In this document: positions 10,350-26,561 of the stretch, one piece after another | Position numbering within the stretch: position 1 is the first letter of the stretch | How the letters are laid out: the number at the start of each line of letters is the position of its first letter | Source of the DNA: Clostridiales bacterium | Lineage (GTDB): Bacteria > Bacillota > Clostridia > Christensenellales > CAG-138 | Assembly (NCBI GenBank): GCA_004558525.1 | Contig: SFCQ01000003.1 | Location: forward strand, 61,038-125,037 | Direction: 5' to 3' | DNA length: 64,000 bases | Program-made: the position numbers and the translations under genes | Notes under the pieces: model-generated | Told to the model about the DNA's origin: nothing | Database searches by the model: none | The model's input: the letters and a program-made list of their open reading frames with translations, nothing else

Positions 10350-10481
10350 TCAGTGTGTTTCAGTTTGTTGTGACTGGCAGCTGCCTCGCATCGCGCAGTT
10401 GGCGCAGTTGCACCCGCAGCAGGACTTGCCCTGTTTTTTTTGACGCACAAGCCGCGCTATTATAAGCGCCGTCACGGCCAT
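10350..10481 (-). CDS. FeoB-associated Cys-rich membrane peptide-like ORF (43 aa, out of frame with the feoB remnant)
   Basis: My own translation gives MAVTALIIARLVRQKKQGKSCCGCNCANCAMRGSCQSQQTETH. The hydrophobic stretch extends upstream (ILISIAL) with no canonical start. It resembles the C-terminal tail of the intact FeoB at 51165 (KKKGCGCGRGCSKCKG). Confidence 0.45.
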   Translation of the reverse strand: MAVTALIIARLVRQKKQGKSCCGCNCANCAMRGSCQSQQTETH

Positions 10482-10821
10482 CAATGCAATCGATATCAGT
10501 ATCCGAGATTGAAAGCGCGCCGGCGTTCTTTTTACTGTAGCAGTTCTTTATTATTCCGGCGATGCAGACGTAACGCTCGTTGGTTATGATGGACTCCGAA
10601 TCGTCGTTAAGCTCCTTTTCGGCGGCTTTGATGTCGCTTTCTATATGCAGCATGGTGCCGGCGGGGATATTGAGCTTTTCATGCGCCTTGTCACCGCTCT
10701 CAAATATCTTTATGGCGTACCAGCGCTGCTGTTCAGGCGGCATATCGTGTACGGCTGCTTCCTCTATATGGGCAATGGCATGCTCAACAGGTCCGGAGAA
10801 GGTAAGCTCGTATCCGCGCAC
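10360..10821 (-). pseudogene. feoB: feoB remnant: only the helical linker domain survives; the G domain and membrane domain are missing
   Basis: RWYAIKIFESGD and ITNERYVCIAGII parallel E. coli FeoB RRWLGLQMLEGD and IADARYQCIAAI, and also the intact copy at 51165..53882. There is no GNPNxGKT G domain and no TM segments. Uses a GTG start directly after feoA. Confidence 0.7.
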
Positions 10822-10844
10822 AGTGACCTCTATAGGATGCCCAG

Positions 10845-11069
10845 CTATAATGCTAATTGAACCATTATCCTTCGGGCCAACTCTGCGCTTATAGCAACCC
10901 TGGCCTCTTTTACCTTCACTATTATGCTGTCACCGATCGAGGATACCACGCTCACCCTTCCTCCCGGCACAAAACCTATATCCGCAAGATGCTTCTTCAC
11001 CTCCGGACTTCCGCCGACCCTGTATATCAGGTTCTCTTCGCCAATATTTGCAAGCACAAGCGGCATCAT
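10845..11069 (-). CDS. feoA: Ferrous iron transport protein FeoA
   Basis: 74 aa FeoA/SH3-like domain (GFVPGGRVSVVS...IIVKVKEARVAISAELA). Ends with TAG. Confidence 0.8.
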   Translation of the reverse strand: MMPLVLANIGEENLIYRVGGSPEVKKHLADIGFVPGGRVSVVSSIGDSIIVKVKEARVAISAELARRIMVQLAL

Positions 11070-11200: not shown

Positions 11201-11305
11201 CGTTGTTGTCAACCCCTTTTTCAATACTTTTTAAGCGCTTGCAATTTCAGTTTCGATGTGCTACTCTTATGGAAATATATCAAGCCGGAAGGCGGTGCAT
11301 TTGCC

Positions 11306-11689
11306 ATGAAAATACTCAGAGCTTCCGAGGATTATCTTGAGGCTATGCTTATTATGAAGCAAAAGCATGGCTATATCCGCTCCATAGACGTTGCCGAGTA
11401 TCTTGGCGTAACAAAGCCCAGCGTCACATATACCACAAAAAGGCTCAGGGAGAACGGCTACATAACGATGGATGCCGACGGGCTGATAACGCTTACCGAC
11501 AGCGGCATGGAAATAGCCTCCAACATGCTTGGCAGGCACAAGGCGCTCACAAAATTCCTGATATCGCTTGGCATAGACGATATCACGGCCGAAAAGGATG
11601 CCTGCAAAATAGAGCACGACATAAGCCAGCAAACGTTTGAGGCCATATGCGCGCACGCTATGGAGCATGAAGGTAAGCCGGTAGAATAA
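11306..11689 (+). CDS. DtxR/MntR-family metal-dependent transcriptional regulator
   Basis: ORF 11258..11689 trimmed to MKILRASEDYLEAMLIM. Winged HTH (SIDVAEYLGVTKPSVTYTTKRLRENGYI) plus a DtxR dimerisation/metal domain. Divergent from feoA. Confidence 0.8.
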   Translation: MKILRASEDYLEAMLIMKQKHGYIRSIDVAEYLGVTKPSVTYTTKRLRENGYITMDADGLITLTDSGMEIASNMLGRHKALTKFLISLGIDDITAEKDACKIEHDISQQTFEAICAHAMEHEGKPVE

Positions 11690-11710
11690 CAGGTTTTATG
11701 CTTATATCGG

Positions 11711-11748
11711 CCATCAGGTCTCAGCAGGATACATGATGGCTTTTTTGA
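11711..11748 (+). terminator. Intrinsic terminator after the DtxR-family gene
   Basis: GCCATCA...TGATGGC stem followed by TTTTTTG. Confidence 0.6.
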
Positions 11749-11822
11749 TTTGCGCCACCTTCAGCTTGGCTGGCCCGTTATTAAATCTAATTTAGCGATT
11801 TCACATTGGAGAGATAACCACT

Positions 11823-13208
11823 ATGGAGGGTATTGAACGCAAGATAAACGCCGAAAACCGCATGATAACCGGCGTTATATGGAAGCAGATACTGTTTTTC
11901 TTCTTCCCGATAATGCTGGGCTCGCTGTTTCAGCAGCTATACAATACAGTTGACGCGATAGTAGTAGGCCAGTTCGTTGGCAAAAACGCGCTTGCGGCGG
12001 TCGGGGGCTCGGCCTCCAACATATTAAACCTGCTGATAGGCTTTTTTACCGGGCTTTCCTCGGGCGCAACGGTAATAATATCGCAGTATTACGGCGCAAA
12101 CGACAGAGACGGCGTGACCAGAGCTTTGCATACGGCTATATTGTTTTCAATAGTCGGCGGCGGCGCGCTTACTGTACTGGGTCTTTTGGGCACCGACGCC
12201 ATGCTCAGGCTTATGGATACCCCCGCCGACACGATGGAAGAGTCTGCACTGTATCTGCGCATAATGTTCCTCGGCATGATACCGAACATGGTATACAACG
12301 TAGGTTCAGCCATACTGCGCGCAATGGGCGATTCAAAAAGGCCCTTGTATTTTCTTGTAGTCGCTTGCCTTTCAAACGTGCTGCTTGACATAGTGTCCGT
12401 GCTGCTTTTCAAAATGGGCGTTGAGGGCGTCGCCCTGGCAAGCATACTTGCCCAAACCATAAGCGCCGTGATGGTAATGCTTTCACTTGCCTCGCCAGGC
12501 AGAGCCTGTCGCTTCGTATTCAAGAAGATGCGCTTTGAAGGCGACATACTTGCGCGCACAATAAAGATAGGCCTCCCCGCCGGAGTGCAATCCATAATGT
12601 ACTCGCTTTCGAACACCCTTCTTACCGCCACCATAAACAGTTTCGGCACGGATACCGTGGCCGCATGGGTGGTGCTCGGCAAGGTGGACGGCATAACCTG
12701 GATGATGCTTGGCGCGTTAGGCATAGCGTCTATGACGTTCGTAGGCCAAAACTTTGGCGCAGGCAGGCTGGACAGGGTGCAGAAGAGCCTTAAGATATGC
12801 CTTGGCATGGGCGCGCTTATAACCATCGGCTTCGGCGCCGGGCTGCTGCTTTTCGGCGCGCCGCTGTTTTCACTGTTTTCAAAGGACGCGCCGGTGATAG
12901 AGCTTTCCATGCGCCTGCTGTGGTATTTTGCTCCATTCTATTGGCTCTTTGTTCCAATAGAGATAATAAGCGGCACATTGCGCGGACTTGGCGATACGCT
13001 TATACCAACCGTAATCACCGCCGTCGGCATATGCGTGTTCAGGGTCATATGGGTGCTTGCCGCGGTTCCGGCTTATAACAGCGTATTTACAGTATCCATA
13101 AGCTATCCGGTATCGTGGTTGGTTACATCGATAGCGTTTGCAATATACTATCTTATAGTGCGGCGCAAAAGATTTTCCAAAATACCTGAAATTTTAGAGA
13201 AACAGTAA
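11823..13208 (+). CDS. MATE family efflux transporter
   Basis: 461 aa, 12-TM profile, with a typical MATE N-terminus (IWKQILFFFFPIMLGSLFQQLYNTVDAIVVG). Confidence 0.85.
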   Translation: MEGIERKINAENRMITGVIWKQILFFFFPIMLGSLFQQLYNTVDAIVVGQFVGKNALAAVGGSASNILNLLIGFFTGLSSGATVIISQYYGANDRDGVTRALHTAILFSIVGGGALTVLGLLGTDAMLRLMDTPADTMEESALYLRIMFLGMIPNMVYNVGSAILRAMGDSKRPLYFLVVACLSNVLLDIVSVLLFKMGVEGVALASILAQTISAVMVMLSLASPGRACRFVFKKMRFEGDILARTIKIGLPAGVQSIMYSLSNTLLTATINSFGTDTVAAWVVLGKVDGITWMMLGALGIASMTFVGQNFGAGRLDRVQKSLKICLGMGALITIGFGAGLLLFGAPLFSLFSKDAPVIELSMRLLWYFAPFYWLFVPIEIISGTLRGLGDTLIPTVITAVGICVFRVIWVLAAVPAYNSVFTVSISYPVSWLVTSIAFAIYYLIVRRKRFSKIPEILEKQ

Positions 13209-13221
13209 AAATTATTTATCC

Positions 13222-13247
13222 GGGGCCGCAGGCGCGGCTCCTTTTTT
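13222..13247 (+). terminator. Intrinsic terminator after the MATE gene
   Basis: GGGGCCGC-agg-CGCGGCTCC followed by TTTTTT. Confidence 0.65.
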
Positions 13248-13323
13248 GCCCTGCTTTTATGTGTTTGCTTAAATCTGCGCTATATGTTAGAATGGCATGA
13301 GAAACGCTTTAGCGAGGACGTAT

Positions 13324-13965
13324 ATGCAAACCAAAGATATCTCTCTGCCAACTTTGCGCAGATTGCCTGTTTACCTGCATTATCTTAATGCTATCAAGGC
13401 TGAGCGCACTAATATATCCGCAACGGCCATAGCAAGCTATTTTGGCATAAACGATGTTCAGGTACGCAAGGATCTTGCTATAGTAAGCGGCAGCGGCAGG
13501 CCAAAGACCGGCTATGTTACGGAGGAGCTTATCGCGCACATACAGGCCTGCCTTAACTGCAACCGCGAAACAAAAGCCATACTTGTCGGCGCGGGAAACA
13601 TAGGCAAGGCGCTGCTTGCTTACGGCGGATTTGACGATTTCGGCCTTAGGATAATTGCCGCATTCGATTCAGACGAAAACACGGTTGGGAAGCCGATAAG
13701 CGGAAAGCCCGTTTATTCAATGGACGAGCTTGGCAGGATATGCAGGCTTGAAAACGTTAAGCTCGGCATAATAGCCGTGCCTGTTCAAAGCGCGCAGAGC
13801 GTGTGCGACGAGCTTGTTGCCTGCGGCATAAGGGCAATATGGAACTTTGCGCCGGCTATATTGAAAAAGCCAGAAACCGTGCTTATAGAAAACGAAAACC
13901 TTGCCTCCTCCCTGGCTATACTTTCAAGGCACATAGGCAACGTAGAAAAGGAGAATCCACAATGA
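13324..13965 (+). CDS. rex: Redox-sensing transcriptional repressor Rex
   Basis: ORF 13297..13965 with ATG 13324 preferred (GAGGA RBS). Rex wHTH (LRRLPVYLHYL...ISATAIASYFGINDVQVRKDL) plus Rossmann fold GAGNIGKAL. Confidence 0.85.
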   Translation: MQTKDISLPTLRRLPVYLHYLNAIKAERTNISATAIASYFGINDVQVRKDLAIVSGSGRPKTGYVTEELIAHIQACLNCNRETKAILVGAGNIGKALLAYGGFDDFGLRIIAAFDSDENTVGKPISGKPVYSMDELGRICRLENVKLGIIAVPVQSAQSVCDELVACGIRAIWNFAPAILKKPETVLIENENLASSLAILSRHIGNVEKENPQ

Positions 13966-14900
13966 ACCTTTTGCATCTAAAATATGCGGTAGTCATAGCG
14001 GAGACAAACTCCATGACAAAGGCTGCCGATCTGCTTTTTACCGCGCAGCCTAATTTAAGCCGGGCGATAAAGGAGCTTGAAAGCACACTTGGCATAACCG
14101 TATTCAGGCGCACATCGAAGGGCATATTCCCAACCCCTCAGGGCGAAGAGTTTTTGGGCTACGCAAGGAAGATACTCGCTCAGGTAGACGCAGTTGAAGC
14201 CATGTACAAAAGCGGCGCGGAAAAGGCGCCGCAGTTTTCGCTCACCACTCCTGGTGCAAACTATGCCGCGGCTGCATTCGCGGAATTTGCAAAAAAGCTT
14301 GATCCCGCTAAAAAAGCCGAGCTTATATACAACGAAACAGTCGCGCCCATGCGCGTGCTGAGCAACGTTACCGACGCCGGCTACAACCTTGGCATACTGC
14401 GCTGCCAAAACGCGCAGGAGCACAGCATAAAGAGCCTGCTTGACGAAAAGCAGCTTCAATTCGAGCTGATATGCGAGTTTGGATATATGCTGGTCATGTC
14501 AGCTTCCCATCCGCTTGCAGGCAGCGGCAGCATTTCCGCTGACAAGCTTAATAACTTCACGGAAATCGCCTCCGCAGACCCATATGCGCCGACGCTGCAG
14601 CTTTCAACTGCGCGCAAAAACGACATTGAAACGGATCCCTTAAAAAGAATATATGTTTTTGACCGTTCAAGCAGGCTTAGGCTTTTAAATAAGATAAGCA
14701 GCGCTTTTATGTGGGCCTCTCCTCTGCCGAAGAGCGTGCTTGACGAGCTTGACCTTGTACAGAAGCCATGTAAGGATTCTCACCAAACATACAGGGATAT
14801 GCTCATATACCGCCGCGGTTATCAGCTCAGCGATATGGACAACGCTTTTATAGACGAGCTTATGAAAGTAAAGCGTTCTATGGGGTTAAACTGCAATTGA
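13962..14900 (+). CDS. LysR-family transcriptional regulator
   Basis: ORF 13803..14900 trimmed to MNLLHLKYAVVIAETNSMTKAADLLFTAQPNLSRAIKELE (LysR HTH). Its ATG overlaps the rex stop (ATGA). Confidence 0.8.
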   Translation: MNLLHLKYAVVIAETNSMTKAADLLFTAQPNLSRAIKELESTLGITVFRRTSKGIFPTPQGEEFLGYARKILAQVDAVEAMYKSGAEKAPQFSLTTPGANYAAAAFAEFAKKLDPAKKAELIYNETVAPMRVLSNVTDAGYNLGILRCQNAQEHSIKSLLDEKQLQFELICEFGYMLVMSASHPLAGSGSISADKLNNFTEIASADPYAPTLQLSTARKNDIETDPLKRIYVFDRSSRLRLLNKISSAFMWASPLPKSVLDELDLVQKPCKDSHQTYRDMLIYRRGYQLSDMDNAFIDELMKVKRSMGLNCN

Positions 14901-15038
14901 TAAAGGCCCATACCAAATAGAATATAATAGGTATATATACACTCTGTTAAGGTTTACATTATAGTGTTTATCTGATATCATAATGCTTAAGCTGAGGAAA
15001 TTCGGCTTAAAAAGCGCGTTTTGGAGGAAAAATCCGGC

Positions 15039-15776
15039 ATGAGCATCGCCGCGGACAGGATAATCGCCATAAGCACGGGTAAGACCGTGTACCGTGACGG
15101 TGAATCCGTAATCAAGGTATTCAGCCAGCCATATCCAAAGGCGCTTGTTTTTCGTGAGGCGCTCAATCAGGCATGCATGGAGGATTCTCCAGTGCGGGTG
15201 CCGCATGTGCAGCGCGTATTTTACGCCGAGCAGAACTTAGCCATATCTTATGAGTATATGCGCGGCAAAACGCTTAAAAGGCTTATAGCCGAGCAGCCCC
15301 AAAAAAGCGAAGAGCTTTTGAAGGTGCTCATAGATACGCAGCGTCTTATTTCTTTCTCCCGCGCCGATATGCTGTTTCCGTTAAAGGACAGGCTTGCAAG
15401 CAGCATATCCGCCGGCATAAACGACGCTATGCTCATTTATGAGCTTACCAAGCTGCTTTATTCAATGCCGGATGGCGCTTCCGCCTGCCACGGCTCCCTC
15501 GGCTTATCAAGCATACTCATTGGTGAAGACGGAGCCGCTTGCGTAATCAACTGGAGCAGGGCGGCGCGCGGATATTATCTTTACGATGCGGCGGCAAGCT
15601 ACATACAGCTATATATTGAAGGTGAGCAAGCCTTGGCAGAGGCTTATATAAGCATGTATTGCTCGTCGAACGATGTGTCAAGACAGGCCATTTCGCCTTG
15701 GATAACGCTTTGTGCGGCGTCAAGGCTCAGCGAAGGCAACGCGCGGGAGCGCGAGCTTCTGTGCGCTTTTATATAA
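15039..15776 (+). CDS. APH/choline-kinase-fold protein with degenerate catalytic residues (putative pseudokinase)
   Basis: ORF trimmed to MSIAADR (GGAGG 8 nt upstream). The kinase-fold layout has VIKV (beta3 Lys). The catalytic loop reads CHGSLGLSSILI instead of HGDLHxxNIL, and VINWSRA replaces IDW/DFG. Confidence 0.5.
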   Translation: MSIAADRIIAISTGKTVYRDGESVIKVFSQPYPKALVFREALNQACMEDSPVRVPHVQRVFYAEQNLAISYEYMRGKTLKRLIAEQPQKSEELLKVLIDTQRLISFSRADMLFPLKDRLASSISAGINDAMLIYELTKLLYSMPDGASACHGSLGLSSILIGEDGAACVINWSRAARGYYLYDAAASYIQLYIEGEQALAEAYISMYCSSNDVSRQAISPWITLCAASRLSEGNARERELLCAFI

Positions 15777-15817
15777 GAGAGTGTCTTAATCTTAATAATG
15801 AAGGAAGAGGTTTATCT

Positions 15818-16057
15818 ATGAAAATCACGATATGTATCGGAAGCTCCTGCCACATAAAGGGCTCGCGCCAGGTTGTTGAGCAGCTTCAGTCCCTCGTAAG
15901 CGAGCATGGTTTGACGGATAAGGTCGAGCTTGCCGGTACCTTCTGCATTGGGAAATGCCAGAACGGAGTGAACGTGATAGTTGATGGCGAAACATTCTCC
16001 GTAACTCCCGAGATCACGCAGACATTCTTTGAACGCGAAGTGCTTGCCAGGCTGTGA
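15818..16057 (+). CDS. Small thioredoxin-like [2Fe-2S] ferredoxin-domain protein (HfsA-like)
   Basis: 79 aa: MKITICIGSSCHIKGS...GTFCIGKCQNG (C-x4-C ... C-x3-C). RBS AAGGAAGAGG. Paralogue of 23041..23292. Confidence 0.75.
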   Translation: MKITICIGSSCHIKGSRQVVEQLQSLVSEHGLTDKVELAGTFCIGKCQNGVNVIVDGETFSVTPEITQTFFEREVLARL

Positions 16058-16083
16058 GCGTTTCGCTTGATGAGGTAGCCAAA

Positions 16084-17757
16084 ATGGATTATATTTCATT
16101 CAAAAAATCAAACTGCCGCAATTGCCATAAGTGCATACGCTACTGTCCGGTAAAGTCGATACGCTTTTCCGGCAACCAGGCTAATGTTATAAGCGACGAA
16201 TGTATACTGTGCGGCGAATGCTATGTGATATGCCCGCAAAGCGCCAAGCAGATAGTTGACGAAACGGAGATCGCGGCAGTGCTGCTGCACGATACCACGC
16301 CCGTATACGCAAGCCTTGCGCCGTCATTTGCGGCCTATTTTGAAGGCGTAGGCATAGAATCCATGCGCGAAGGCTTAAAAAAGCTCGGCTTTGCCGATGC
16401 TGAGGAGACGGCCATAGGCGCAACCTTTGTCAAGCGCGAATATGAGCGCATTGCAAACGAAGCGACTATGGACGTTGTTATAACCTCCTGCTGCTCAACT
16501 GTAAACACGCTTGTTGAAAAATACTATCCTCAGCTCACGGGCTGCCTTGCACCGGTCATGACGCCTATGCAGGCCCATTGTCAGGACCTGAAAAGAAGGT
16601 ATCCTGGAGCTAAGACGATATTCATTGGGCCTTGCCTTTCCAAAAAGGACGAGGCTGCAAGGGTAGGCGTGGACGCGGCGCTTACGTTTGAAGAAATAGC
16701 GAGCATGCTCAGCAAAAAGGGAATAGAGCTTGAAAAGAAACGCGATAACGACCATAACAGCAGGGCGAGGCTGTTCCCCACCTCCGGCGGCGTGCTTAAT
16801 ACGATGACCAACAAGAATCCCGCCTATGATTATTACTGCATAGACGGATTGGACAACGTTATTCCCGCGCTTGACGATATTCAAAGGGGCGGCATATCGC
16901 ATTGCTTTATAGAGATGTCAGCTTGCGCCGGCAGCTGCGTGCGCGGGCCTATAATGCGCAAGCAGCACCCCTCCCCCGTGCGCGATTATCAGCGGGTGGC
17001 AACATATGCGGGCGAGGAGGATTTTGACATTGCCCAGCCGGAAAGCAGCCTGCTTGCAAACGAATATCACTGCACGCTTCTGCACAAGGTCATGCCGAGC
17101 CAAAGCGAGCTTGAGGACATACTCAGGAAGATGGGCAAGATAACGCCCGATGACGAGCTTAACTGCGGCACCTGCGGCTACAATACATGCCGCGACAAGG
17201 CGGCGGCCATATATCAAGGCAAGGCCGAGATAAACATGTGCCTTCCCTACCTTATGGAAAGGTCGGAAAGGTTTACCGACAACATTTTGGATAACACTCC
17301 AAACGGCATAATAGTCGTTAACGATTCATACGAGATACAGCAGCTCAACAGGGCCGCCATGCGCATGCTGCATGTACATTCGCGTTCCGACGTTATGGGC
17401 GAGCCTTTGATAAGGCTGATGGATCCCATTGACTTTATAAACGCCAGCCAGTACGGCAAGCGCATAGTCAACAAGAGGGATTATTACGCCGAATTTGACA
17501 TATACCTTGAGCTGACTATAGTAACCGACAAAAAGTCAGGAAATATGATAGGCATATTCAGAGACGTTACTGATGAGGAAAGCGAGCGCAAGAGCAAGGA
17601 AACGCTGAGCAGGCAGACCATTGAAACTGCGGACAAGGTAGTAGACAAGCAGATGCGCATAGTGCAGGAGATAGCTTCCCTGCTTGGCGAAACGGCTGCG
17701 GAGACAAAGATAGCCCTTACTAAGCTTAAGGAGTCGATTGCAAATGAAGACGAGTAA
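16084..17757 (+). CDS. hydS: Sensory [FeFe]-hydrogenase-like protein with C-terminal PAS domain (HydS/HfsB-like, group C)
   Basis: ORF 16054..17757, with ATG 16084 preferred (GAGG RBS). N-terminal 2x[4Fe-4S] (CRNCHKCIRYCP, CILCGECYVICP). Variant H-cluster motifs TSCCS, GPCLSKKDE and EMSACAGSCVRGP, versus TSCCP, MPCTAKKFE and VMACPGGCVAGGGQP in the adjacent HydA. Extra CGTCGYNTC...C motif, then a PAS domain (PNGIIVVNDSYEIQQLNRAAMRML). Confidence 0.8.
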   Translation: MDYISFKKSNCRNCHKCIRYCPVKSIRFSGNQANVISDECILCGECYVICPQSAKQIVDETEIAAVLLHDTTPVYASLAPSFAAYFEGVGIESMREGLKKLGFADAEETAIGATFVKREYERIANEATMDVVITSCCSTVNTLVEKYYPQLTGCLAPVMTPMQAHCQDLKRRYPGAKTIFIGPCLSKKDEAARVGVDAALTFEEIASMLSKKGIELEKKRDNDHNSRARLFPTSGGVLNTMTNKNPAYDYYCIDGLDNVIPALDDIQRGGISHCFIEMSACAGSCVRGPIMRKQHPSPVRDYQRVATYAGEEDFDIAQPESSLLANEYHCTLLHKVMPSQSELEDILRKMGKITPDDELNCGTCGYNTCRDKAAAIYQGKAEINMCLPYLMERSERFTDNILDNTPNGIIVVNDSYEIQQLNRAAMRMLHVHSRSDVMGEPLIRLMDPIDFINASQYGKRIVNKRDYYAEFDIYLELTIVTDKKSGNMIGIFRDVTDEESERKSKETLSRQTIETADKVVDKQMRIVQEIASLLGETAAETKIALTKLKESIANEDE

Positions 17758-18928
17758 CAACCTCTGCGCGGATATAGGCTACCTTAGCATAAACCACGCA
17801 GGGGAACAGCTTTGCGGCGATCATGTGGAAATAGTTGAGCCTGAAGACGGCGATTCAACCATAGTCGTTCTTGCGGACGGGCTTGGCAGCGGCGTTAAGG
17901 CGAGCATACTTTCCACGCTTACGTCAAAGATACTCTCTACCATGCTTGCTGCCGGCTTAAGGCTTGAGGACGCTGTTGAAACGCTTGTTGAGACGCTCCC
18001 CGTATGCTCCGTAAGAAAGGTCGCGTATTCAACGTTTACAATAGTACGCATTACCAACAACCGCAGGGTCGAGATAATACAATATGACAACCCGAAGGTT
18101 ATAATGCTCAGGGACGGAAAGAACGTAAATATCCCATTCCACGAAAGCTACATCGGCAACAAAAAGATAATCAAGGCCGAGGTGGATGTTGAGGAGCATG
18201 ATGCGTTTTTAGCGTTTTCAGACGGCGTTGAGCATGCAGGCGTCGGCCTGAGCTACAACTTTGGCTGGAAAAGAGAGGATATAATAGACTTCCTTACAGC
18301 GTTTTGGGACGTTGGGTATACCGCAAAGACGCTTTCGACCATTCTTATTGGCGAGACCAACAGGCTTTATGAAGGCAAGCCCGGCGATGATGCAACGGTA
18401 TGCACGATAAGGATACGCAAAAGGGAGCCGGTCAGCCTTATAATCGGGCCGCCTTCAAACAGGGACGACGGCAACAAGATGATGTCTCTCTTCTTTGCAA
18501 AGGAGGGCAAGCACATTGTTTGCGGCGGCACCACAAGCACCATAGCGGCCGAGTATCTAAGGAAGCCATTAAGGCCCCAGCTCGACTTTTACGATCCTGA
18601 CATACCGCCTACGGCGGAAATAGAAGGCGTTGACATTGTTACGGAAGGAGTTATAACAATAAACAGGGTGCTTGAGTACGCGCTCAACTACCTTGCCGAC
18701 AATACCTCCTTTGAAAAATGGAGCTATAAGAAGGACGGGGCGAGCCGCATAGCGCGAATGTTGTTTGAGGACGCGACGGATATAAACTTCTTCGTAGGCA
18801 AGGCCGTTAATCCGGCCCACCAGAACAGCAATTTGCCTATCAATTTCACAATAAAGATGCAGCTTGTTAAAGAGCTTGCAGAATGTCTTGAAAAGATGGG
18901 CAAAAAGATAAAAGTCAGTTATTTTTAA
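17744..18928 (+). CDS. PP2C/SpoIIE-family serine phosphatase (HfsC-like)
   Basis: ORF 17738..18928. Shows GEQLCGDHVEIV and VVLADGLGSGVKASILS. Overlaps the hydS stop, suggesting translational coupling. Confidence 0.8.
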   Translation: MKTSNNLCADIGYLSINHAGEQLCGDHVEIVEPEDGDSTIVVLADGLGSGVKASILSTLTSKILSTMLAAGLRLEDAVETLVETLPVCSVRKVAYSTFTIVRITNNRRVEIIQYDNPKVIMLRDGKNVNIPFHESYIGNKKIIKAEVDVEEHDAFLAFSDGVEHAGVGLSYNFGWKREDIIDFLTAFWDVGYTAKTLSTILIGETNRLYEGKPGDDATVCTIRIRKREPVSLIIGPPSNRDDGNKMMSLFFAKEGKHIVCGGTTSTIAAEYLRKPLRPQLDFYDPDIPPTAEIEGVDIVTEGVITINRVLEYALNYLADNTSFEKWSYKKDGASRIARMLFEDATDINFFVGKAVNPAHQNSNLPINFTIKMQLVKELAECLEKMGKKIKVSYF

Positions 18929-18982
18929 GCTTATGCTTATCAATAAAATGCCAGTTTAATCATTCAGGAGGAACGACAAGCA

Positions 18983-19459
18983 ATGCAAACCCCATTCGAC
19001 TTCACTGTGGTAGATTCTATAATTGACGGCCATGGTGCAGAGCCAAGCGCAGTTATTGCCATATTGCAGGCAATACAGGAGCATTATCATTATCTGCCGC
19101 GCGAGGTATTCTCTCATCTTTCAAAGCGGCTCAATGTTCCCTGCGCCAGCATTTACTCGGTAGCCACATTCTATGAAAACTTTTCCCTTGAGCCCAAGGG
19201 CAAGTATGTCATAAAATGCTGCGATGGCACCGCATGCCATGTACGCGGCTCTACCCCAATACTTGAAAGGCTGAGGAATGAGCTTGGACTTTCCGAGCAG
19301 AAGGTGACCACGGACGATCTGCTCTTTACTGTTGAAACTGTATCCTGCCTTGGCGCATGCGGCCTTGCGCCGGTAATAACCGTAAATGAGAAGGTACACC
19401 CCGCCATGACGCCGGACAAGGCTTCGGAGCTTATAAAGCAGCTGAAGGAGGAAAACTGA
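18983..19459 (+). CDS. hydC: Bifurcating-type [FeFe]-hydrogenase subunit HydC (NuoE-like 2Fe-2S)
   Basis: 158 aa NuoE family: CDGTACHVRGS...SCLGACGLAP. Confidence 0.85.
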   Translation: MQTPFDFTVVDSIIDGHGAEPSAVIAILQAIQEHYHYLPREVFSHLSKRLNVPCASIYSVATFYENFSLEPKGKYVIKCCDGTACHVRGSTPILERLRNELGLSEQKVTTDDLLFTVETVSCLGACGLAPVITVNEKVHPAMTPDKASELIKQLKEEN

Positions 19460-19460
19460 C

Positions 19461-21341
19461 ATGCTTACATGCCGAGAGGATATTATAAAAGAGCGCAAGG
19501 CTTATGCCGAAAGCTTTGCCAGCCAAAAGCGCAAAATACTTGTCTGCGCCGGCACGGGCTGCATAGCGGGCGGTTCGTTCGATATACATGCCGAGCTAAA
19601 AAGGCTCATGGCCGAAAACGGCCTGCCCTGCACCGTTGAGCTTTCAGACGACCCGCACGAGCATGAGGAATCCATAGGACTTAAAAAGAGCGGCTGCCAC
19701 GGCTTTTGCGAGATGGGCCCGCTTGTGCGCATAGAGCCCGAAGGCTGGCTGTATACCAAGGTAAAGGTCGGCGACTGCAAGGAGATAATAGAGCGTACCA
19801 TAATGAAGGGCGAGCATATTGAGCGCCTTGCCTACCAAAAGGGCGGCGTGGTGCGCAAGAAGCAGGACGATATACCCTTCTATAAGAAGCAGACCCGCCT
19901 TGTGCTGAAGCATTGCGGCCACATCGACGCCACTTCAATAAAAGAATACATTGCCGTGGGCGGCTATACTGCGTTTGAAAAGGCGCTGTTCGATATGTCT
20001 CCCGAAGGCATAGTAAAAACCATATCTGATTCCAACCTCCGCGGACGCGGCGGCGGCGGCTTCCCCACCGGCAAAAAATGGAGCCAGGTCGCAAGGCAGA
20101 AATCCCCCGTCAAGTACATCGTATGTAACGGCGACGAGGGCGACCCGGGCGCGTTCATGGATCGCTCCATAATGGAGGGCGACCCGCACAGGATGCTTGA
20201 GGGCATGATGATAGCCGGCCGTGCCTGCGGCGCTAAGGAGGGCTATATATATGTGCGCGCAGAGTATCCCATGGCCGTTGAAAGGCTCAGGAACGCCATA
20301 GCCCAAGCTGAAGAGATGGGCCTGCTTGGCGATAACATACTCGGCAGCGGCTTTGATTTCCGTATACACATCAACAAGGGCGCGGGCGCCTTTGTGTGCG
20401 GCGAGGGCAGCGCGCTTACGGCATCAATAGAAGGAAAGCGCGGCTTCCCGCGTGTAAAGCCACCGCGCACCGTTGAGCACGGCCTGTTTAACGAGCCCAC
20501 CGTTTTGAACAACGTTGAAACGTTTGCCAACGTTCCGCTCATCATAATGAACGGCGCGGACTGGTATAAGTCCATCGGCCCCGAAAACAGCCCAGGCACA
20601 AAGGCATTTGCCCTTACCGGCAACATAGAGAACACCGGCCTTATAGAAGTTCCCATGGGAACCACGCTTGAGGAAGTAATATACGGCGTAGGCGGCGGCA
20701 TGAGGGGCGGAGCCGAGTTCAAGGCCGTGCAGATAGGCGGACCTTCCGGCGCATGCCTTACAAAGGATCATCTAAACATACCCCTTGATTTCGACTCGCT
20801 CAAGAAGATAGGCGCAATGGTCGGCTCCGGCGGACTTGTCGTTATGGACAGCAAGACCTGCATGGTAGAGGTCGCGCGCTTTTTCATGAGCTTTACGCAG
20901 AACGAATCCTGCGGCAAGTGCGTACCCTGCCGCGAAGGCACGAAGCGCATGCTTGAAGTGCTTGAGCGCATAGTTGCTGGCAACGGCGAGGACGGAGACA
21001 TAGAGCTGCTCGAGGACCTTGCGGACACCATATCCGCCGCGGCCCTGTGCGGACTCGGCAAGACCGCGCCCAACCCCGTAATGAGCACCATACAGTACTT
21101 CCGCAATGAATACGAGGCGCACATTTACGACAAACGCTGCCCCGCCGGCGCATGCTCCAAGCTCAAGCGCATATATATCGACCCCGAGCTTTGCAAGGGC
21201 TGTTCCCGCTGCGCTAAAGGCTGCCCTGTCGGCGCGATATCCGGCCAGGTCAAGACCCCGTTCGTCATCGACGAAAAGAAGTGCATAAAATGCGGCGCGT
21301 GCGTATCTACCTGCGCGTTCCACGCTATCAAGGAGGACTGA
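19461..21341 (+). CDS. hydB: Bifurcating-type [FeFe]-hydrogenase subunit HydB (NuoF-like, FMN/NADH-binding)
   Basis: 626 aa: GRGGGGFPTGKKW, ESCGKCVPCREG, and C-terminal 2x[4Fe-4S] (CKGCSRCAKGCP, CIKCGACVSTC). Confidence 0.9.
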   Translation: MLTCREDIIKERKAYAESFASQKRKILVCAGTGCIAGGSFDIHAELKRLMAENGLPCTVELSDDPHEHEESIGLKKSGCHGFCEMGPLVRIEPEGWLYTKVKVGDCKEIIERTIMKGEHIERLAYQKGGVVRKKQDDIPFYKKQTRLVLKHCGHIDATSIKEYIAVGGYTAFEKALFDMSPEGIVKTISDSNLRGRGGGGFPTGKKWSQVARQKSPVKYIVCNGDEGDPGAFMDRSIMEGDPHRMLEGMMIAGRACGAKEGYIYVRAEYPMAVERLRNAIAQAEEMGLLGDNILGSGFDFRIHINKGAGAFVCGEGSALTASIEGKRGFPRVKPPRTVEHGLFNEPTVLNNVETFANVPLIIMNGADWYKSIGPENSPGTKAFALTGNIENTGLIEVPMGTTLEEVIYGVGGGMRGGAEFKAVQIGGPSGACLTKDHLNIPLDFDSLKKIGAMVGSGGLVVMDSKTCMVEVARFFMSFTQNESCGKCVPCREGTKRMLEVLERIVAGNGEDGDIELLEDLADTISAAALCGLGKTAPNPVMSTIQYFRNEYEAHIYDKRCPAGACSKLKRIYIDPELCKGCSRCAKGCPVGAISGQVKTPFVIDEKKCIKCGACVSTCAFHAIKED

Positions 21342-21345
21342 GCAA

Positions 21346-23037
21346 ATGGAAAACAAGGAATATATGCTCATAGACGGCAACCCCATAGAGATTAACGGCG
21401 AAAAGAACCTGCTTGAGCTTATACGCAAGGCCGGCATAGAGATGCCTACCTTCTGCTATCACTCTGAGCTTTCCGTTTACGGCGCATGCCGCATGTGCAT
21501 GGTCGAAAACAGCCACGGCGGTATGGAAGCCGCCTGCTCCACCGTACCCAAAGCCGGCATGGAGATATACACCAACACCGAAAGGCTGCACAAGCACCGC
21601 AAGATGATACTTGAGCTGCTGCTTGCCAACCATTGCCGCGACTGCACGACCTGCCAGAAAAACGGCAAGTGCAGGCTGCAGGAGCTTGCCTCCCTGTTCG
21701 GCATAGACAGCATACGCTTCAAAAACCTTAAGCCCGAGCCCAAGCTCGATACCTCAAGCGTGTGCATAGTGAGGGATACGCACAAGTGCATACTGTGCGG
21801 CGACTGCGTGCGCATGTGCAACGAGATACAGAACGTTGGCGCAATAGACTTTGCAAACCGCGGCTCCAAGATGATAATTGCCACCGCGTTTGACGAGCCC
21901 ATAGCCAACTCCCCCTGCGTAGGCTGCGGACAGTGCGCCGCCGTATGCCCCACAGGCGCTATAGTCATAAGGAAGGATACCGGAAGGGTATGGCGCGAGC
22001 TTAACGACAAGTCCACAAAGGTCGTGGCTCAGGTCGCCCCCGCAGTTCGCGTTGCAGTAGCCAAGGAATTTGGCCTGCCAGAGAACGAGAACTCGATGGG
22101 CCGCATAACCAGCGCGCTCAGGCGCCTTGGCTTTGACGAGGTGTACGATACCGCCACCGGCGCCGACCTTACCGTGCTTGAGGAAGCAAACGAGTTCATC
22201 TCAAGGATAGAAGAGGGCGGTACCCTGCCGCTGTTCACAAGCTGCTGCCCCGCGTGGATACAGTATTGCGAAAAGAACCACCCCGAGCTTATGCAGAATG
22301 TCTCCACCTGCAAATCGCCCATGCAGATGTTCTCCTCCGTCATAAAGGCGCATTACGCCTCCTCCTCAAGAAGGGTCGTATCCGTTGCCGTGATGCCCTG
22401 CACAGCCAAAAAATTTGAGTGTGCGAGGGACGAATTCAAGCATGACGGTATTCCTGATACCGACTATGTCATAACAACGCAGGAGCTTATACAGATGATA
22501 CACAAGGCCGGCCTCGTATTTGACGAGCTTGAGCCCGAAGCGGTTGACTCCGCCTTCAGCACCTGCACAGGCGCAGGCGTTATATTCGGCGTTACCGGCG
22601 GCGTTACCGAGGCTGTGTTGAGGCGCATTTCTACCGATAAGAGCGCGCAGGCGCTCAGGTCCATCGCCTTCAACGAAGTGCGCGGCATGAAGGGCGTTAA
22701 GGAAACCACCGTTCCCTTTGGCGATAAGGAAGTGCGCATAGCCATAGTAAGCGGCCTTAAGAACGCCGAAAACATAATAAAGGCCATAGAAAACGGCGAG
22801 CATTACGACTTTGTTGAGGTCATGGCATGCCCCGGCGGCTGCGTAGCCGGCGGCGGTCAGCCCTTCGGTACGCTTGCCACAAAGATGAACCGCGGCAAGG
22901 CGCTCTACAGCGCGGACAAGATGCTGAGCATAAAGCGCAGCGAAGAGAACCCGCTCATGCTCAACCTTTACAACGGCGTGCTTAAGGGACGCGTTCATGA
23001 GCTGCTGCATGTGCATTACAGCAAGAAAGGCGAATGA
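21346..23037 (+). CDS. hydA: [FeFe]-hydrogenase catalytic subunit HydA
   Basis: 563 aa: N-terminal 2Fe-2S/4Fe-4S domains and canonical H-cluster motifs FTSCCPAW, MPCTAKKFE, EVMACPGGCVAGGGQP. Confidence 0.9.
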   Translation: MENKEYMLIDGNPIEINGEKNLLELIRKAGIEMPTFCYHSELSVYGACRMCMVENSHGGMEAACSTVPKAGMEIYTNTERLHKHRKMILELLLANHCRDCTTCQKNGKCRLQELASLFGIDSIRFKNLKPEPKLDTSSVCIVRDTHKCILCGDCVRMCNEIQNVGAIDFANRGSKMIIATAFDEPIANSPCVGCGQCAAVCPTGAIVIRKDTGRVWRELNDKSTKVVAQVAPAVRVAVAKEFGLPENENSMGRITSALRRLGFDEVYDTATGADLTVLEEANEFISRIEEGGTLPLFTSCCPAWIQYCEKNHPELMQNVSTCKSPMQMFSSVIKAHYASSSRRVVSVAVMPCTAKKFECARDEFKHDGIPDTDYVITTQELIQMIHKAGLVFDELEPEAVDSAFSTCTGAGVIFGVTGGVTEAVLRRISTDKSAQALRSIAFNEVRGMKGVKETTVPFGDKEVRIAIVSGLKNAENIIKAIENGEHYDFVEVMACPGGCVAGGGQPFGTLATKMNRGKALYSADKMLSIKRSEENPLMLNLYNGVLKGRVHELLHVHYSKKGE

Positions 23038-23040
23038 GTT

Positions 23041-23292
23041 ATGCTTGAGATAAAGGTTTGTATAGGTACCTCCTGTCACCTTCGCGGCTCCTACAATGTG
23101 ATGGTATGCTTCCAGCAGCTTATCGAGCAGTACGGCCTGCACGACAAGATAAACCTTGCCGGCCAGTTCTGCACGGGCAACTGCCAGGACGGTGTGTGCG
23201 TCGATATCGGCGGCGCCGTGTATTCCGTTACGCCGGAAACCGCAAGGGCGTTTTTCAAGAATACTATATTGCCTGCTGCAAACGCAGTGTAA
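23041..23292 (+). CDS. Small thioredoxin-like [2Fe-2S] ferredoxin-domain protein
   Basis: 83 aa: MLEIKVCIGTSCHLRGS...GQFCTGNCQDG. Paralogue of 15818..16057. Confidence 0.7.
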   Translation: MLEIKVCIGTSCHLRGSYNVMVCFQQLIEQYGLHDKINLAGQFCTGNCQDGVCVDIGGAVYSVTPETARAFFKNTILPAANAV

Positions 23293-23324
23293 CGCCAATA
23301 AGCAAATACTGAACAACTTCAAAT

Positions 23325-23346
23325 AGGGACGGCCGAAGCCGTCCCT
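23325..23346. terminator. Hairpin after the hydrogenase operon
   Basis: AGGGACGGCCGAAGCCGTCCCT is a perfect 9-bp stem. The T-tract is missing because repeat copy B begins 2-3 nt downstream. Confidence 0.5.
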
Positions 23347-23348
23347 GT

Positions 23349-23515
23349 TACGGAGTGTCTAAAAAGTGGCAGAACGCCACTTTTTTGAGTTTCACGGGTT
23401 TTGCCTCTTGCTCACGCTCCCGGGCGGCAAAACCCGCAAGGTACGAAAACCTGAAGGGTTTCATCCGTTCTGACGTGCATGCCGTCATAGTCGGAATTAG
23501 CTTAACCCTCCGCAT
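23349..23515 (-). mobile_element. Repeat family copy B (inverted orientation, 5' part diverged or truncated)
   Basis: The reverse complement carries the conserved core and the 3' terminal hairpin (AAAAAAGTGGCGTTCTGCCACTTTTTAGACACTCC). Confidence 0.75.
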
Positions 23516-23817
23516 CTTAGAATAGCCGCATGGCGGCTGCTCCCCCATGCTTCTTCTTCGCCGGGCTTCCTCCTCGCTGCATCGCCCGCAGGAGGCGCTT
23601 CGGCTCCGGCCCTCCCTATTATTATAAGCTTATCAGTCCTATTGCTTATGGAATGGGCATTAGATTTCGCTTAGATATAAGTTTTGCTTATCCATTTCCC
23701 GTCAATTCATATCGATAAAAATACATCGTTATATGTTTGTCATATTCCATTTTGGTTTGATATGCGTTATAATAATGGCATCAAAGATGACTTTAAGTCA
23801 GGAAAGGAAGTTAACTT

Positions 23818-25035
23818 ATGGCACGTTTTACTTTGCCCCGCGATCTTTATCATGGAAAAGGCTCTCTTGAGGCGCTTAAGACATTTGAGGGCAAGCGCGC
23901 AATGATATGCGTTGGCGGCGGCAGTATGAAGAAGTTTGGTTTCCTTGATAAGGCTGTCGGATATCTTAAGGAAGCCGGCATGGAGGTCGAGCTGTTTGAA
24001 GGCATAGAGCCAGATCCCTCCGTTGAAACCGTTATGCGCGGCGCTGAGGCGATGCAGAAGTTCCAGCCTGATTGGATAATAGCTATGGGCGGCGGTTCCC
24101 CTATAGATGCTGCCAAGGCCATGTGGATAAAGTATGAATACCCCGAGGTAACGTTTGAAGATATGTGCAAGGTGTTCGGCCTGCCCAAGCTGAGGAAAAA
24201 GGCCCGCTTCTGCGCCATATCCTCCACCTCCGGCACCGCTACCGAGGTTACCGCCTTCTCCATAATCACCGATTATGCAAAGGGCATCAAATACCCGATA
24301 GCCGATTTTGAGATAACTCCTGATGTGGCCATAGTCGATCCTGATCTGGCCGAGACTATGCCAAAGAAGCTGGTCGCCCACACCGGTATGGACGCTATAA
24401 CCCATGCTATAGAAGCTTATGTTTCCACCGCGCACTGCGACTACACCGATCCGCTTGCCATATTCGCCATAAAGATGATACAGCACGACCTTGTGGATTC
24501 CTACAATGGCGACATGGCCAAGCGCGACACCATGCACAACGCACAGTGCCTTGCCGGTATGGCATTTTCCAACGCCCTGCTCGGCATAGTGCACTCCATG
24601 GCGCACAAGACCGGCGCCGCCTTTGCCGATTACGGCGCGCACATAATACACGGCGCTGCCAACGCCATGTATCTGCCCAAGGTAATAGCCTTTAACGCCA
24701 AGAATCCCGAAGCCAAGAAGCGTTATGGCGTTATAGCCGACTATATGAACCTTGGCGGCAATAACGACGATGAAAAGGTCGCCCTGCTTATCAAGTATCT
24801 GCGCGGCATGAACGATGCGCTCAACATCCCGCACTGCATAAAGAACTACGGTCCGGACAGCTATCCCACAGAGCAGGGCTTTGTGCCTGAGAATGTATTC
24901 CTTGAGAGGCTGCCCGAAATCGCCAAGAACGCTATCGGCGACGCCTGCACAGGCTCCAACCCGCGCATACCCACCCAGGAGGAGATGGAAAAGCTGCTCA
25001 AGTGCTGCTACTACGATACAGAGGTGGACTTCTAA
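23818..25035 (+). CDS. Iron-containing alcohol dehydrogenase
   Basis: 405 aa Fe-ADH family: GGGSPIDAAKA, HTGMDAITHAIEAY, His-rich metal site HSMAHKTG. Confidence 0.85.
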   Translation: MARFTLPRDLYHGKGSLEALKTFEGKRAMICVGGGSMKKFGFLDKAVGYLKEAGMEVELFEGIEPDPSVETVMRGAEAMQKFQPDWIIAMGGGSPIDAAKAMWIKYEYPEVTFEDMCKVFGLPKLRKKARFCAISSTSGTATEVTAFSIITDYAKGIKYPIADFEITPDVAIVDPDLAETMPKKLVAHTGMDAITHAIEAYVSTAHCDYTDPLAIFAIKMIQHDLVDSYNGDMAKRDTMHNAQCLAGMAFSNALLGIVHSMAHKTGAAFADYGAHIIHGAANAMYLPKVIAFNAKNPEAKKRYGVIADYMNLGGNNDDEKVALLIKYLRGMNDALNIPHCIKNYGPDSYPTEQGFVPENVFLERLPEIAKNAIGDACTGSNPRIPTQEEMEKLLKCCYYDTEVDF

Positions 25036-25094
25036 GCATAGAACATGCTTAGCTTAGAAAAGCAAATTTCAACAGCATATAAATCATACTCTGT

Positions 25095-26560: not shown

Positions 26561-26561
26561 T

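Follow-up and report, generated by a model that had tools for sequence, protein, structure and literature searches.

A group C3 [FeFe]-hydrogenase–PP2C cassette headed by a probable pseudokinase in uncultured gut Clostridia

Introduction

How sensory [FeFe]-hydrogenases relay the H2 signal has been a question since 2014, with relevance to H2 and methane ecology in the rumen and gut and to ethanol-yield engineering in thermophilic Clostridia, in which hfsB mutations raise the ethanol yield. The phosphatase-linked putative sensory enzymes are classified as group C3 in HydDB (PMC5037454), and the arrangement has been described as the HydS cluster of Ruminococcus albus and as hfsABCD, in which HfsA is a small Fe-S protein, HfsB corresponds to HydS, HfsC to the PP2C phosphatase and HfsD to HydA2. 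In R. albus, hydS is co-regulated with hydA2 and adhE (PMC6776011), and signalling was proposed to pass via the PAS domain and on to a neighbouring Ser/Thr protein kinase (Zheng et al. 2014, in the form in which PMC5707799 cites it). Deletion of hfsB in Thermoanaerobacterium increased hydrogenase activity (PMC5707799), and in 2026 the sensory mechanism of the group C/Hfs arrangement was still called not known (PMC13277313). Here we describe such a cassette in a 64-kb stretch of contig SFCQ01000003.1 from a Clostridiales bacterium (the window), in which the gene at the head of the cassette encodes a kinase-fold protein with replaced catalytic residues.

A previous reading of the DNA letters (the sequence-only reading) had recognized in this stretch a group C sensory arrangement, had noted that the output of such arrangements is unresolved, which agrees with the 2026 statement, and had described the module as lacking a canonical kinase partner. 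Our analysis indicates that the window probably holds a kinase–ferredoxin–hydS–pp2c–hydCBA–ferredoxin operon, that is, a group C3 cassette of the HydS/HfsB type with a non-catalytic pseudokinase at its head. The kind of module is already known; what appears to be new is the pseudokinase clade, the standing of the kinase as the most conserved member of the cassette, the tight linkage to adhE and a Rex box, and an uncharacterised C-terminal domain of the PP2C. The locus can be regarded as a natural dissection, in which uncultured gut Clostridia keep HydS, the ferredoxin and the PP2C under constraint and retain a dead kinase. It makes testable whether PP2C signalling needs the activity of the linked kinase and whether the kinase-fold protein has a scaffold role, and it is a useful natural experiment that leaves the signal-relay question unsolved.

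Results

Comparison of the window locus with described cassettes

Between 13.3 and 23.3 kb the genes of the window run on the + strand in the order rex-lysR-kin-fdx-hydS-pp2c-hydC-hydB-hydA-fdx2 (Table 1), where kin is the kinase-fold open reading frame (ORF) and fdx and fdx2 encode small [2Fe-2S] proteins. All four genes listed by the sequence-only reading at 15039–18928 on this strand are present. With the group C3, R. albus and hfs clusters the locus shares the fdx-hydS-pp2c core and the HydS domain order of two [4Fe-4S] clusters, H-domain, four-Cys FeS domain and PAS domain (PMC5037454, PMC5707799, PMC6776011), as well as the second-sphere substitutions of HydS, the overlap of hydS and pp2c, a leading gene for an APH/RIO-like kinase and a rex gene nearby. 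The assignment to the Hfs-like arrangement of R. albus and Thermoanaerobacterium (see also PMC11837493) is thereby upheld. Unlike those clusters, the window has the trimeric HydCBA downstream rather than the monomeric HydA2/HfsD, lacks adhE and a Rex operator upstream, carries lysR directly upstream, and has a catalytically dead kinase. The genes from kin through fdx2 stand in the order of the Acetivibrio (Clostridium) straminisolvens/thermocellus-type locus, rex-adhE-kinase-fdx-hydS-pp2c-hydC-hydB-hydA-fdx2, with HydB 76–81%, HydA 69–70% and HydC 71–73% identical to the proteins of three such loci (L010 from A. straminisolvens, L018 and L083). However, the Acetivibrio-type loci keep adhE and an intact kinase (HGD...N...DW), and the window kinase is only 39–40% identical to theirs, as compared with 47–81% for the other genes.

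We surveyed 80 loci from other species, fetched by kinase alignment, in Oscillospiraceae, Acutalibacteraceae, Lachnospiraceae, Ruminococcus, Acetivibrio, Thermoclostridium and Christensenellales. The kinase gene occupied the corresponding position in 80/80 of these loci, which were fetched by that gene, and was followed by kinase-fdx(-fdx)-hydS-pp2c order in 49 of the 58 loci with enough downstream DNA, a co-occurrence that the sequence-only reading had proposed to survey. A small ferredoxin gene, often duplicated, lay between the kinase gene and hydS in 52/58. Downstream of pp2c, a monomeric HydA2/HfsD-like hydrogenase was encoded in 38 of 41 other-species loci and hydCBA in the remaining three (L010, L018 and L083). 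Position and sequence both identify the kinase-fold ORF as the orthologue of the APH/RIO-like kinase that belongs to this cassette, and not, as had been supposed, a neighbour found there instead of a partner. What had been taken for a module built without a kinase is a canonical cassette in a derived state, with its kinase dead and adhE and the Rex box lost.

The cassette kinase has lost its catalytic residues in the window

The kinase family collected by protein search numbers more than 1177 members, about 249 aa in length and annotated at source as APH-family, RIO-like or Ser/Thr kinases. With the window protein as query, the search returned its own species at 99% identity, and the next match was only 40% identical. 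The match of the window protein to Pfam APH is weak (E=5e-4, 20.3 bits against a cutoff of 23.2); active relatives match APH (~1e-14) and RIO1 (~1e-10). The catalytic loop and the metal-binding site read CHGSLGLSS...VINW in the window as compared with CHGDFNPSN...I[IL]DW in 80/80 relatives from other species, and three catalytic residues are replaced (HGD to HGS, N to S and DW to NW), which bears out the degenerate catalytic residues of the sequence-only reading. In all 13 of the HydS-adjacent kinases that were aligned explicitly the catalytic residues are intact. The window protein retains the His-Gly of the catalytic loop, the beta3 Lys (K26 in IKVF, nt 15111–15122) and the alphaC Glu (E40 in EALNQA, nt 15156–15173), and the latter two are invariant in both kinase alignments, the window protein included.

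The AlphaFold2 model of the window protein is a bilobal kinase fold (predicted local distance difference test score 82.7, predicted template-modelling score 0.80), and its best Foldseek matches in the PDB, with probability 1.0 and template-modelling scores of 0.46–0.64, were APH(3')-Ia, APH(4)-Ia, Bacillus subtilis YtaA and choline kinase, with capreomycin kinase also among the best, which places the modelled protein in the APH/eukaryotic-like-kinase fold. The identical protein recurs on at least 23 independent metagenome contigs, and an assembly or frameshift artefact as the source of the degenerate residues was thus ruled out. No second kinase copy was found in the 64-kb window. Since the ORF is intact and fold-competent and the Lys-Glu pair is kept, the protein is most likely a non-catalytic pseudokinase. 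Like bacterial and eukaryotic pseudokinases it retains the fold and the Lys-Glu pair, has lost the loop Asp, the Asn and the DFG Asp, and shows accelerated but constrained evolution; unlike the known ones, it comes from an APH/RIO-like family, and an allosteric or partner role is here putative.

Loss at a single catalytic position recurs in the family. Among the best 150 representatives at 50% identity, about 40 vary at one catalytic position (HGE, HGN, HGH, or GW for DW), and the triple loss is limited to the window clade. Variants of the catalytic Asp that keep the Asn and the DW Asp (P0296–P0428) comprise 11 HGE, nine HGN and two HGH proteins of the same 150, and this recurrence suggests that canonical phosphotransfer may be non-essential in several lineages. 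In one HGE member (L095), two small [2Fe-2S] genes follow the kinase gene.

Stepwise divergence of the kinase in one clade

In a set of 51 species the kinase is better conserved than any other cassette member, with a mean pairwise identity of 76.5% (minimum 58.6%), as compared with 64% for HydS and 69% for PP2C. Relative to the same set, the ferredoxin (62%), HydS (55%) and PP2C (64%) of the window fall within normal ranges; its kinase is 35–40% identical, and the observed 37% stands against about 75% predicted from the divergence of HydS and PP2C (z=−7.7). A search with the PP2C found closer lineages, with PP2C identities to the window of 92% (L090), 84% (L091) and 83% (L093). L090 has the order rex-lysR-kin-fdx-hydS-pp2c-hydCBA-fdx2 and a dead kinase (HGA...D...LNW) that is 43% identical to that of the window, and a further lineage (L094; lysR-kin-fdx-hydS-pp2c-hydC) has a dead kinase as well (HGA...D...LGW, 44% identical to the window). 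L091 shares the synteny of L090, with adhE absent from the locus and the kinase intact, and L093 has adhE, a HydA2-type hydrogenase and an intact kinase. The identity of the kinase to typical members falls across the clade from 72–80% to 60–64% in L093, 48–52% in L091 and 35–39% in the window and L090. At the three catalytic positions the residues are S/S/N in the window, A/D/N in L090 and A/D/G in P0286/L094, and the order lysR-kin-fdx-hydS-pp2c-hydC is common to these three degenerate lineages. The alignments trace a stepwise relaxation within one clade that ends in the loss of the catalytic residues, with lineage-specific replacements. An overlap of hydS and pp2c as in the window is also present in L090, L091, L093 and L094, and in most other loci the two genes abut or overlap by a few bases.

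These replacements bear on the possibility that a non-canonical enzymatic activity persists in the protein, for example phosphotransfer of atypical geometry, AMPylation or an ATPase. The preserved Lys-Glu pair and His-Gly would fit such an activity, as would the HGE, HGN and HGH variants, which indicate that the triad may not always be essential. However, the catalytic base, the Asn and the metal-binding Asp are all gone, and that their replacements differ between sister lineages argues for released constraint and not for a new conserved active site, which makes a retained activity of this kind highly improbable.

As compared with L090, dN is 0.56 for the kinase, 0.054 for pp2c, 0.11 for hydS and 0.07 for hydA (dN and dS being nonsynonymous and synonymous divergence), and the kinase of the window clade evolves 5–10 times faster than its neighbour genes. 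The dN/dS values of 0.045 for pp2c and 0.098 for hydS in this comparison are only rough, as synonymous sites between the lineages are saturated (proportion of synonymous differences, pS, 0.5–0.8), and pS was compared with the proportion of nonsynonymous differences (pN), together with a simulation of neutral ORF survival, in place of between-lineage dN/dS. For the kinase against L090, pN (0.39) is well under pS (0.71), with just four residues unaligned. When neutral evolution was simulated to 43% amino-acid identity, with indels ignored, 0 of 400 pairs retained both ORFs free of stops; in the three lineages, the real ORF is intact and of near-constant length. Across dead and active kinases 41 columns are invariant, mostly in the N-lobe (KTVY.DG, KVF, EA.N). 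That the ORF has stayed open although synonymous sites are saturated argues for a maintained pseudokinase rather than a decaying gene, and our reading is that the ORF is under relaxed but real purifying selection and would encode a folded, non-catalytic protein.

The main rival to a maintained pseudokinase is full decay, in which the ORF would be functionless, for example drifting since adhE and the Rex-controlled promoter left the locus. The loss of all three catalytic residues and the accelerated dN would both be expected of such a gene, and the gradient of divergence parallels the loss of adhE from the locus. The same direction is taken by the within-species data: between the window and strain L087, nonsynonymous and synonymous differences number 5:0 in the pseudokinase as compared with 1:6 in hydS (hypergeometric one-sided P ~0.008, calculated by hand), and within-species amino-acid diversity is 0.020 in the pseudokinase and 0.006 in HydS, about three times lower, so the gene may be undergoing decay at present. 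L087 is one pair, and the sole unbiased within-species comparison, as strains L001–L006 had been chosen for an identical kinase protein; a metagenome scan for population pN/pS gave three loci. The open reading frames of near-constant length at saturated synonymous sites, the lack of any neutrally simulated pair with both ORFs open, the excess of pS over pN, the invariant columns shared by active and dead members with their concentration in the N-lobe, the confident predicted fold, and the identical protein on the metagenome contigs all run counter to full decay, which we consider quite unlikely. The lysR gene ranks second at the locus in rate of evolution (61% identical to its L090 counterpart, dN 0.34), with within-species nonsynonymous to synonymous counts of 6:3 and 4:4, and is possibly co-evolving with the pseudokinase.

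Linkage of the cassette to adhE and Rex

A full-length bifunctional adhE immediately precedes the kinase gene in 54 of 60 loci, with its end less than 600 nt away. A rex gene was present within 6 kb upstream of kin in 31/54 loci, lysR in 34/54 and either or both in 47/54. The sequence-only reading had named rex and lysR among the neighbours of the module; both are conserved neighbours of the cassette. In the window, L090, L091 and L094, lysR directly precedes the kinase gene, and rex is beside the cassette in the window, L090, L091 and L093, and not in L094. Rex operators (TTGTTAA-N4-TTAACAA with up to two mismatches, searched in the 963 kb of L007–L086) are concentrated just 5' of adhE, with 25 of 31 at −2.6 to −3.5 kb relative to the start of the kinase gene. 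Three contigs with the typical adhE-kinase-fdx-hydS-pp2c order of Clostridia are labelled as metagenome-assembled genomes of Bacteroidaceae (L047, L079) or Mollicutes (L050), and binning or labelling errors are likely.

No adhE was found in the 64-kb window. The Rex operator at up to three mismatches was absent from the window between 11 and 27 kb and from the vicinity of the cassette in L091, L093 and L094, and the single match in L090 falls inside pp2c. Searches with TTGTTAANNNNTTAACAA and TGTGAANNNNTTCACA at up to three mismatches gave nothing near the cassette and no excess over shuffled sequences, and at four mismatches the Rex-operator scan of the window returned weak sites only, one inside pp2c and one upstream of the iron-containing alcohol dehydrogenase (Fe-ADH) gene. 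Direct control of the window cassette promoter by Rex through a canonical box was dropped, as no match at up to three mismatches was found near the cassette.

The linkage raises the possibility that the kinase serves adhE, for instance by acting as a regulator or modifier on AdhE itself or on a metabolite of the ethanol branch, so that its death followed the loss of adhE and HydS-PP2C never needed it. The link between adhE and the kinase gene is at least as tight as that between the kinase gene and hydS (49/58), and of nine kinase loci without HydS/PP2C downstream, seven have an adhE-like gene directly upstream, the contig start being too near the kinase gene in the other two to judge. The position of the Rex boxes just upstream of adhE, the absence of adhE and the Rex box from the window clade, the strong constraint on PP2C and HydS without an active kinase, and the closeness of the kinase model to small-molecule kinases are all in keeping with this explanation. 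Against it, L091 lacks adhE at the locus and yet keeps the catalytic residues, typical intact kinases also occur in five more loci where no adhE is adjacent, the pseudokinase still heads the HydS cassette and has not been deleted, and adhE may sit elsewhere in these genomes. We regard a role in the service of adhE as rather unlikely, though a serious possibility.

The PP2C phosphatase and its C-terminal domain

The phosphatase matches Pfam SpoIIE with 57.5 bits (cutoff 25), and its AlphaFold2 model matches SpoIIE (5mqh), RsbU (3ke6) and RsbX (3w40) with E values of 1e-9 to 1e-12. The motifs CGD, DGLGSG, SDG and GDDAT are invariant in 22 homologues, and CGD26, D45-G46, D160-G161 and D215-D216 are, as we assume by motif analogy, the PPM metal sites. 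The gene is the slowest-evolving of the cassette in the window clade. Since the PP2C is constrained and looks active, a phosphorylated substrate is presumably still present in this clade.

An alignment of the phosphatase's C-terminal domain (residues 229–394) from 12 homologues has 76 invariant columns out of 167, including a HI[VI]CGGTTS loop. The window domain and the 12 homologues gave no Pfam match at E≤10, and nothing was found for the domain with phmmer against the PDB. In a profile search of the PDB, the strand-loop-helix "GKHIVCGGTTSTIAAEYL" weakly matched (E=0.03) the loop with which the SIS domain of GmhA (3trj) binds phosphate; the fold search with the full-length protein was dominated by the PP2C domain. 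We speculate that the domain is a candidate ligand-binding or phospho-acceptor module.

The closeness to SpoIIE, RsbU and RsbX, and the encoding of an opposing kinase and phosphatase together, are reminiscent of partner-switching modules. Unlike those, the locus has no STAS protein and no GHKL/HATPase kinase within 11–27 kb, its linked kinase is of the APH/RIO fold, and the phosphatase has its own C-terminal domain. Among the genes from 11258 to 26560, Pfam and NCBIfam detected no STAS, HATPase_c or histidine kinase gene, in agreement with the earlier statement that no STAS or histidine kinase partner is adjacent, here extended to HATPase-type partners over 11.2–26.6 kb.

HydS and the small ferredoxins

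The profile searches proposed earlier for Fe_hyd_lg_C, PAS and SpoIIE/PP2C gave E values of 1.7e-43, 1.4e-6 and 2.3e-15, respectively. In HydS, a Fer4 dicluster (aa 15–64) precedes Fe_hyd_lg_C (aa 83–299), a four-Cys FeS domain (PF04060, aa 369–398, E=4e-11) and a PAS region (aa 408–510, with the PAS and PAS_8 matches at 408–462 and E=1e-5 for PAS_8), followed by a predicted C-terminal helix of about 55 residues; the additional four-Cys motif and PAS domain had been correctly recognized from the letters. The variant motifs were also quoted exactly and lie at nt 16483–16497 (TSCCS), 16627–16653 (GPCLSKKDE) and 16912–16950 (EMSACAGSCVRGP), with the four-Cys stretch CGTCGYNTC...C at 17164–17241. 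TSCCS, GPC and EMSACAGSC align with TSCCP, MPC and EYMACPGGC of the Desulfovibrio desulfuricans hydrogenase, and "CLAPV" with its "CKSPI"; the 60 cassette relatives have [ST]SCC[HSPN], GPC and EMSAC. All H-cluster Cys ligands are present, and by alignment HydS has Gly at CpI position M353, Ser at M497 and Ala at S319. The CpI numbering on HydS is one that we take partly from general knowledge of CpI, the rest following PMC10055695.

Like the sensor TmHydS, the window HydS has Gly at M353, Ser at M497 and a PAS domain (PMC10055695), and the canonical proton pathway appears disrupted, with Ala at the S319 position in the window protein. Unlike TmHydS, which has an Ala (Ala131) at the position of the proton-relay Cys C299 (PMC10055695), the window protein and its 60 relatives keep this Cys (TSCC/SSCC). 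By its motifs, the window HydS has a complete H-cluster site, with surroundings that are in part of sensor type, and signalling domains.

The retained cysteines raise the question of whether HydS is mainly a catalytic subunit, as an Hfs-type enzyme with the small ferredoxin, and no sensor. HydS preserves both the H-cluster ligands and the proton-relay Cys, the hfs operon was originally reported as the main hydrogenase of Thermoanaerobacterium saccharolyticum (PMC11837493), and the 2026 paper still considers HfsABC a possible functional hydrogenase (PMC13277313). However, the three substitutions are those of the low-activity sensor TmHydS (PMC10055695), domains of signalling type are present, the gene is obligatorily coupled to that for PP2C, deletion of hfsB raised rather than lowered hydrogenase activity (PMC5707799), and a bona fide catalytic HydABC is encoded directly downstream. 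A mainly catalytic HydS is in our judgement decidedly unlikely.

The small ferredoxin has the motifs CIGSSC...CIGKC (CX4C...CX3C). L090, L091 and the three Acetivibrio-type loci (L010, L018 and L083) likewise carry a second small [2Fe-2S] gene 3' of hydA, and many HydA2-type loci have instead two small [2Fe-2S] genes between the kinase gene and hydS.

A proposed signal path and the role of the pseudokinase

In the path that we propose, H2 would bind HydS at the complete H-cluster with its non-catalytic-type surroundings (the Gly, Ser and Ala substitutions), and the redox state would be exchanged with the pair of [4Fe-4S] clusters at the N terminus and probably also with the small [2Fe-2S] ferredoxin, to be relayed by way of the four-Cys FeS and PAS domains and the C-terminal helix. 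The relay would control the translationally coupled PP2C of the SpoIIE/RsbU type and change the phosphorylation of a putative target. From the synteny and the published hfsB and hydS phenotypes, the output would tune the expression or activity of hydrogenase and alcohol dehydrogenase, alongside Rex and LysR. In most Clostridia the APH/RIO-like kinase is presumed to oppose the PP2C; in the window clade the pseudokinase would most likely serve HydS/PP2C as a scaffold or as an allosteric or nucleotide-binding partner, and phosphorylation would come from a kinase encoded elsewhere.

A related and more tentative proposal, which we rate as unlikely, is that the kinase is a non-catalytic nucleotide-binding adaptor that joins HydS/PP2C to the LysR and/or Rex output, with phosphotransfer dispensable. 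This would explain both a pseudokinase with three lost residues beside a strongly selected PP2C and HydS, and the recurrent HGE, HGN and HGH variants. The PP2C substrate would then not be made by the kinase, and candidates are its own C-terminal domain (the CGGTTS loop) or a phospho-metabolite bound by the SIS-like domain.

Apart from the within-species signs of decay and the saturated synonymous sites, several further points weigh against a signalling cassette with a maintained pseudokinase. That the family consists of protein kinases is itself only presumed, and the structures nearest to the model are small-molecule kinases. The operon structure is drawn solely from gene spacing and consensus scans. 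As the proton-relay Cys is kept in the window HydS and in 60/60 cassette relatives, HydS may have appreciable catalysis. The sensory role of HydS is extrapolated from one characterised homologue (TmHydS) and from Thermoanaerobacterium genetics. To our knowledge, TmHydS is the only sensory [FeFe]-hydrogenase characterised biochemically, and we know of no experiment in which a HydS has been tied to the activity of a PP2C or to a substrate. Weighing these points, we still regard a group C3 cassette headed by a non-catalytic pseudokinase as the probable state of the locus.

Gene layout and other features of the locus

Table 1. Coordinates (window positions) and supporting evidence for the features of the cassette and its surroundings
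Feature	Position	Strand	Evidence
rex, redox-sensing repressor	13297–13965	+	NCBIfam Rex equivalog 254.6 bits (cutoff 130); Pfam Put_DNA-bind_N and CoA_binding
lysR-family transcription regulator	13959–14900	+	Pfam HTH_1 E=2e-17; LysR_substrate match weak
Promoter-like site 5' of kinase-fold ORF	14953–14981	+	TTTACA-17-TATCAT, extended TG; consensus match only
Kinase-fold ORF, 245 aa, degenerate APH/RIO-like kinase orthologue	15039–15776	+	ATG; GGAGG 11 nt upstream
Degenerate catalytic loop CHGSLGLSS (family CHGDFNPSN)	15486–15512	+	Alignments
VINW, metal-binding DFG-equivalent site (family I[IL]DW)	15543–15554	+	Alignments
Small thioredoxin-like [2Fe-2S] ferredoxin, 79 aa, HfsA position	15818–16057	+	Pfam 2Fe-2S_thioredx 30.2 bits (cutoff 24.8)
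HydS, putative sensory [FeFe]-hydrogenase, group C3 type	GTG 16054 or ATG 16084 to 17757	+	Pfam, motifs
PP2C/SpoIIE-type phosphatase gene, 394 aa	17744–18928	+	ATG; Pfam SpoIIE E=2.3e-15
Phosphatase domain (aa 1–228)	17744–18427	+	SpoIIE match
Phosphatase C-terminal alpha/beta domain, ~165 aa	18428–18928	+	Column conservation; no Pfam family
hydC, NuoE/NuoF-like subunit	18983–19459	+	Pfam, NCBIfam
hydB, NuoE/NuoF-like subunit	19461–21341	+	Pfam, NCBIfam
hydA, group A [FeFe]-hydrogenase of HydABC type	21346–23037	+	Pfam, NCBIfam; canonical TSCCP, MPC, EVMAC
Second small thioredoxin-like [2Fe-2S] protein, 83 aa	23041–23292	+	Pfam 2Fe-2S_thioredx 25.6 bits (cutoff 24.8)
Iron-containing alcohol dehydrogenase (Fe-ADH)	23818–25035	+	96.5% identical to L090 protein; dN/dS 0.02
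NfnB/GltD-like and NfnA-like pair	25178–27416	−	

The start of pp2c overlaps the 3' end of hydS by 14 nt, and hydCBA follows directly; the sequence-only reading had noted the overlap and had placed hydS directly upstream of hydCBA. Gene callers favour the GTG at 16054 as the hydS start, which would overlap the fdx stop codon. Strong terminator-like hairpins lie at 13222–13241, 3' of a MATE gene, and at 25094–25119, 3' of the Fe-ADH gene. Since the consensus scan found no terminator-like site at the pp2c-hydC junction, kin-fdx-hydS-pp2c-hydCBA-fdx2 plausibly forms a single transcription unit.

A 9-nt inverted repeat, TTAAGCTGA-N6-TCGGCTTAA (14987–15010), lies 3' of the promoter-like −10 element and 5' of the ribosome-binding site of the kinase-fold ORF; it is partly conserved in L090 and is a candidate operator (possibly for LysR) or a hairpin of the 5' untranslated region. 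A terminator-like hairpin of 11 pairs followed by CTTTTATATA (15740–15765) falls in the final 12 codons of the kinase-fold ORF, immediately 5' of the ferredoxin gene, and is perhaps an internal attenuator and perhaps a chance match. The Fe-ADH gene and the NfnB/GltD-NfnA-like pair flank the hydrogenase operon and form with it a compact redox-balancing island. Upstream on the − strand, feoB of the window (10360–11069) is a deletion remnant, in which a FeoB_Cyto fragment of 153 aa and a single feoA are left; another strain of the species, L004 (2037–4903), has a complete 831-aa FeoB and two feoA, and relative to it the window is without about 1.76 kb and 0.8 kb.

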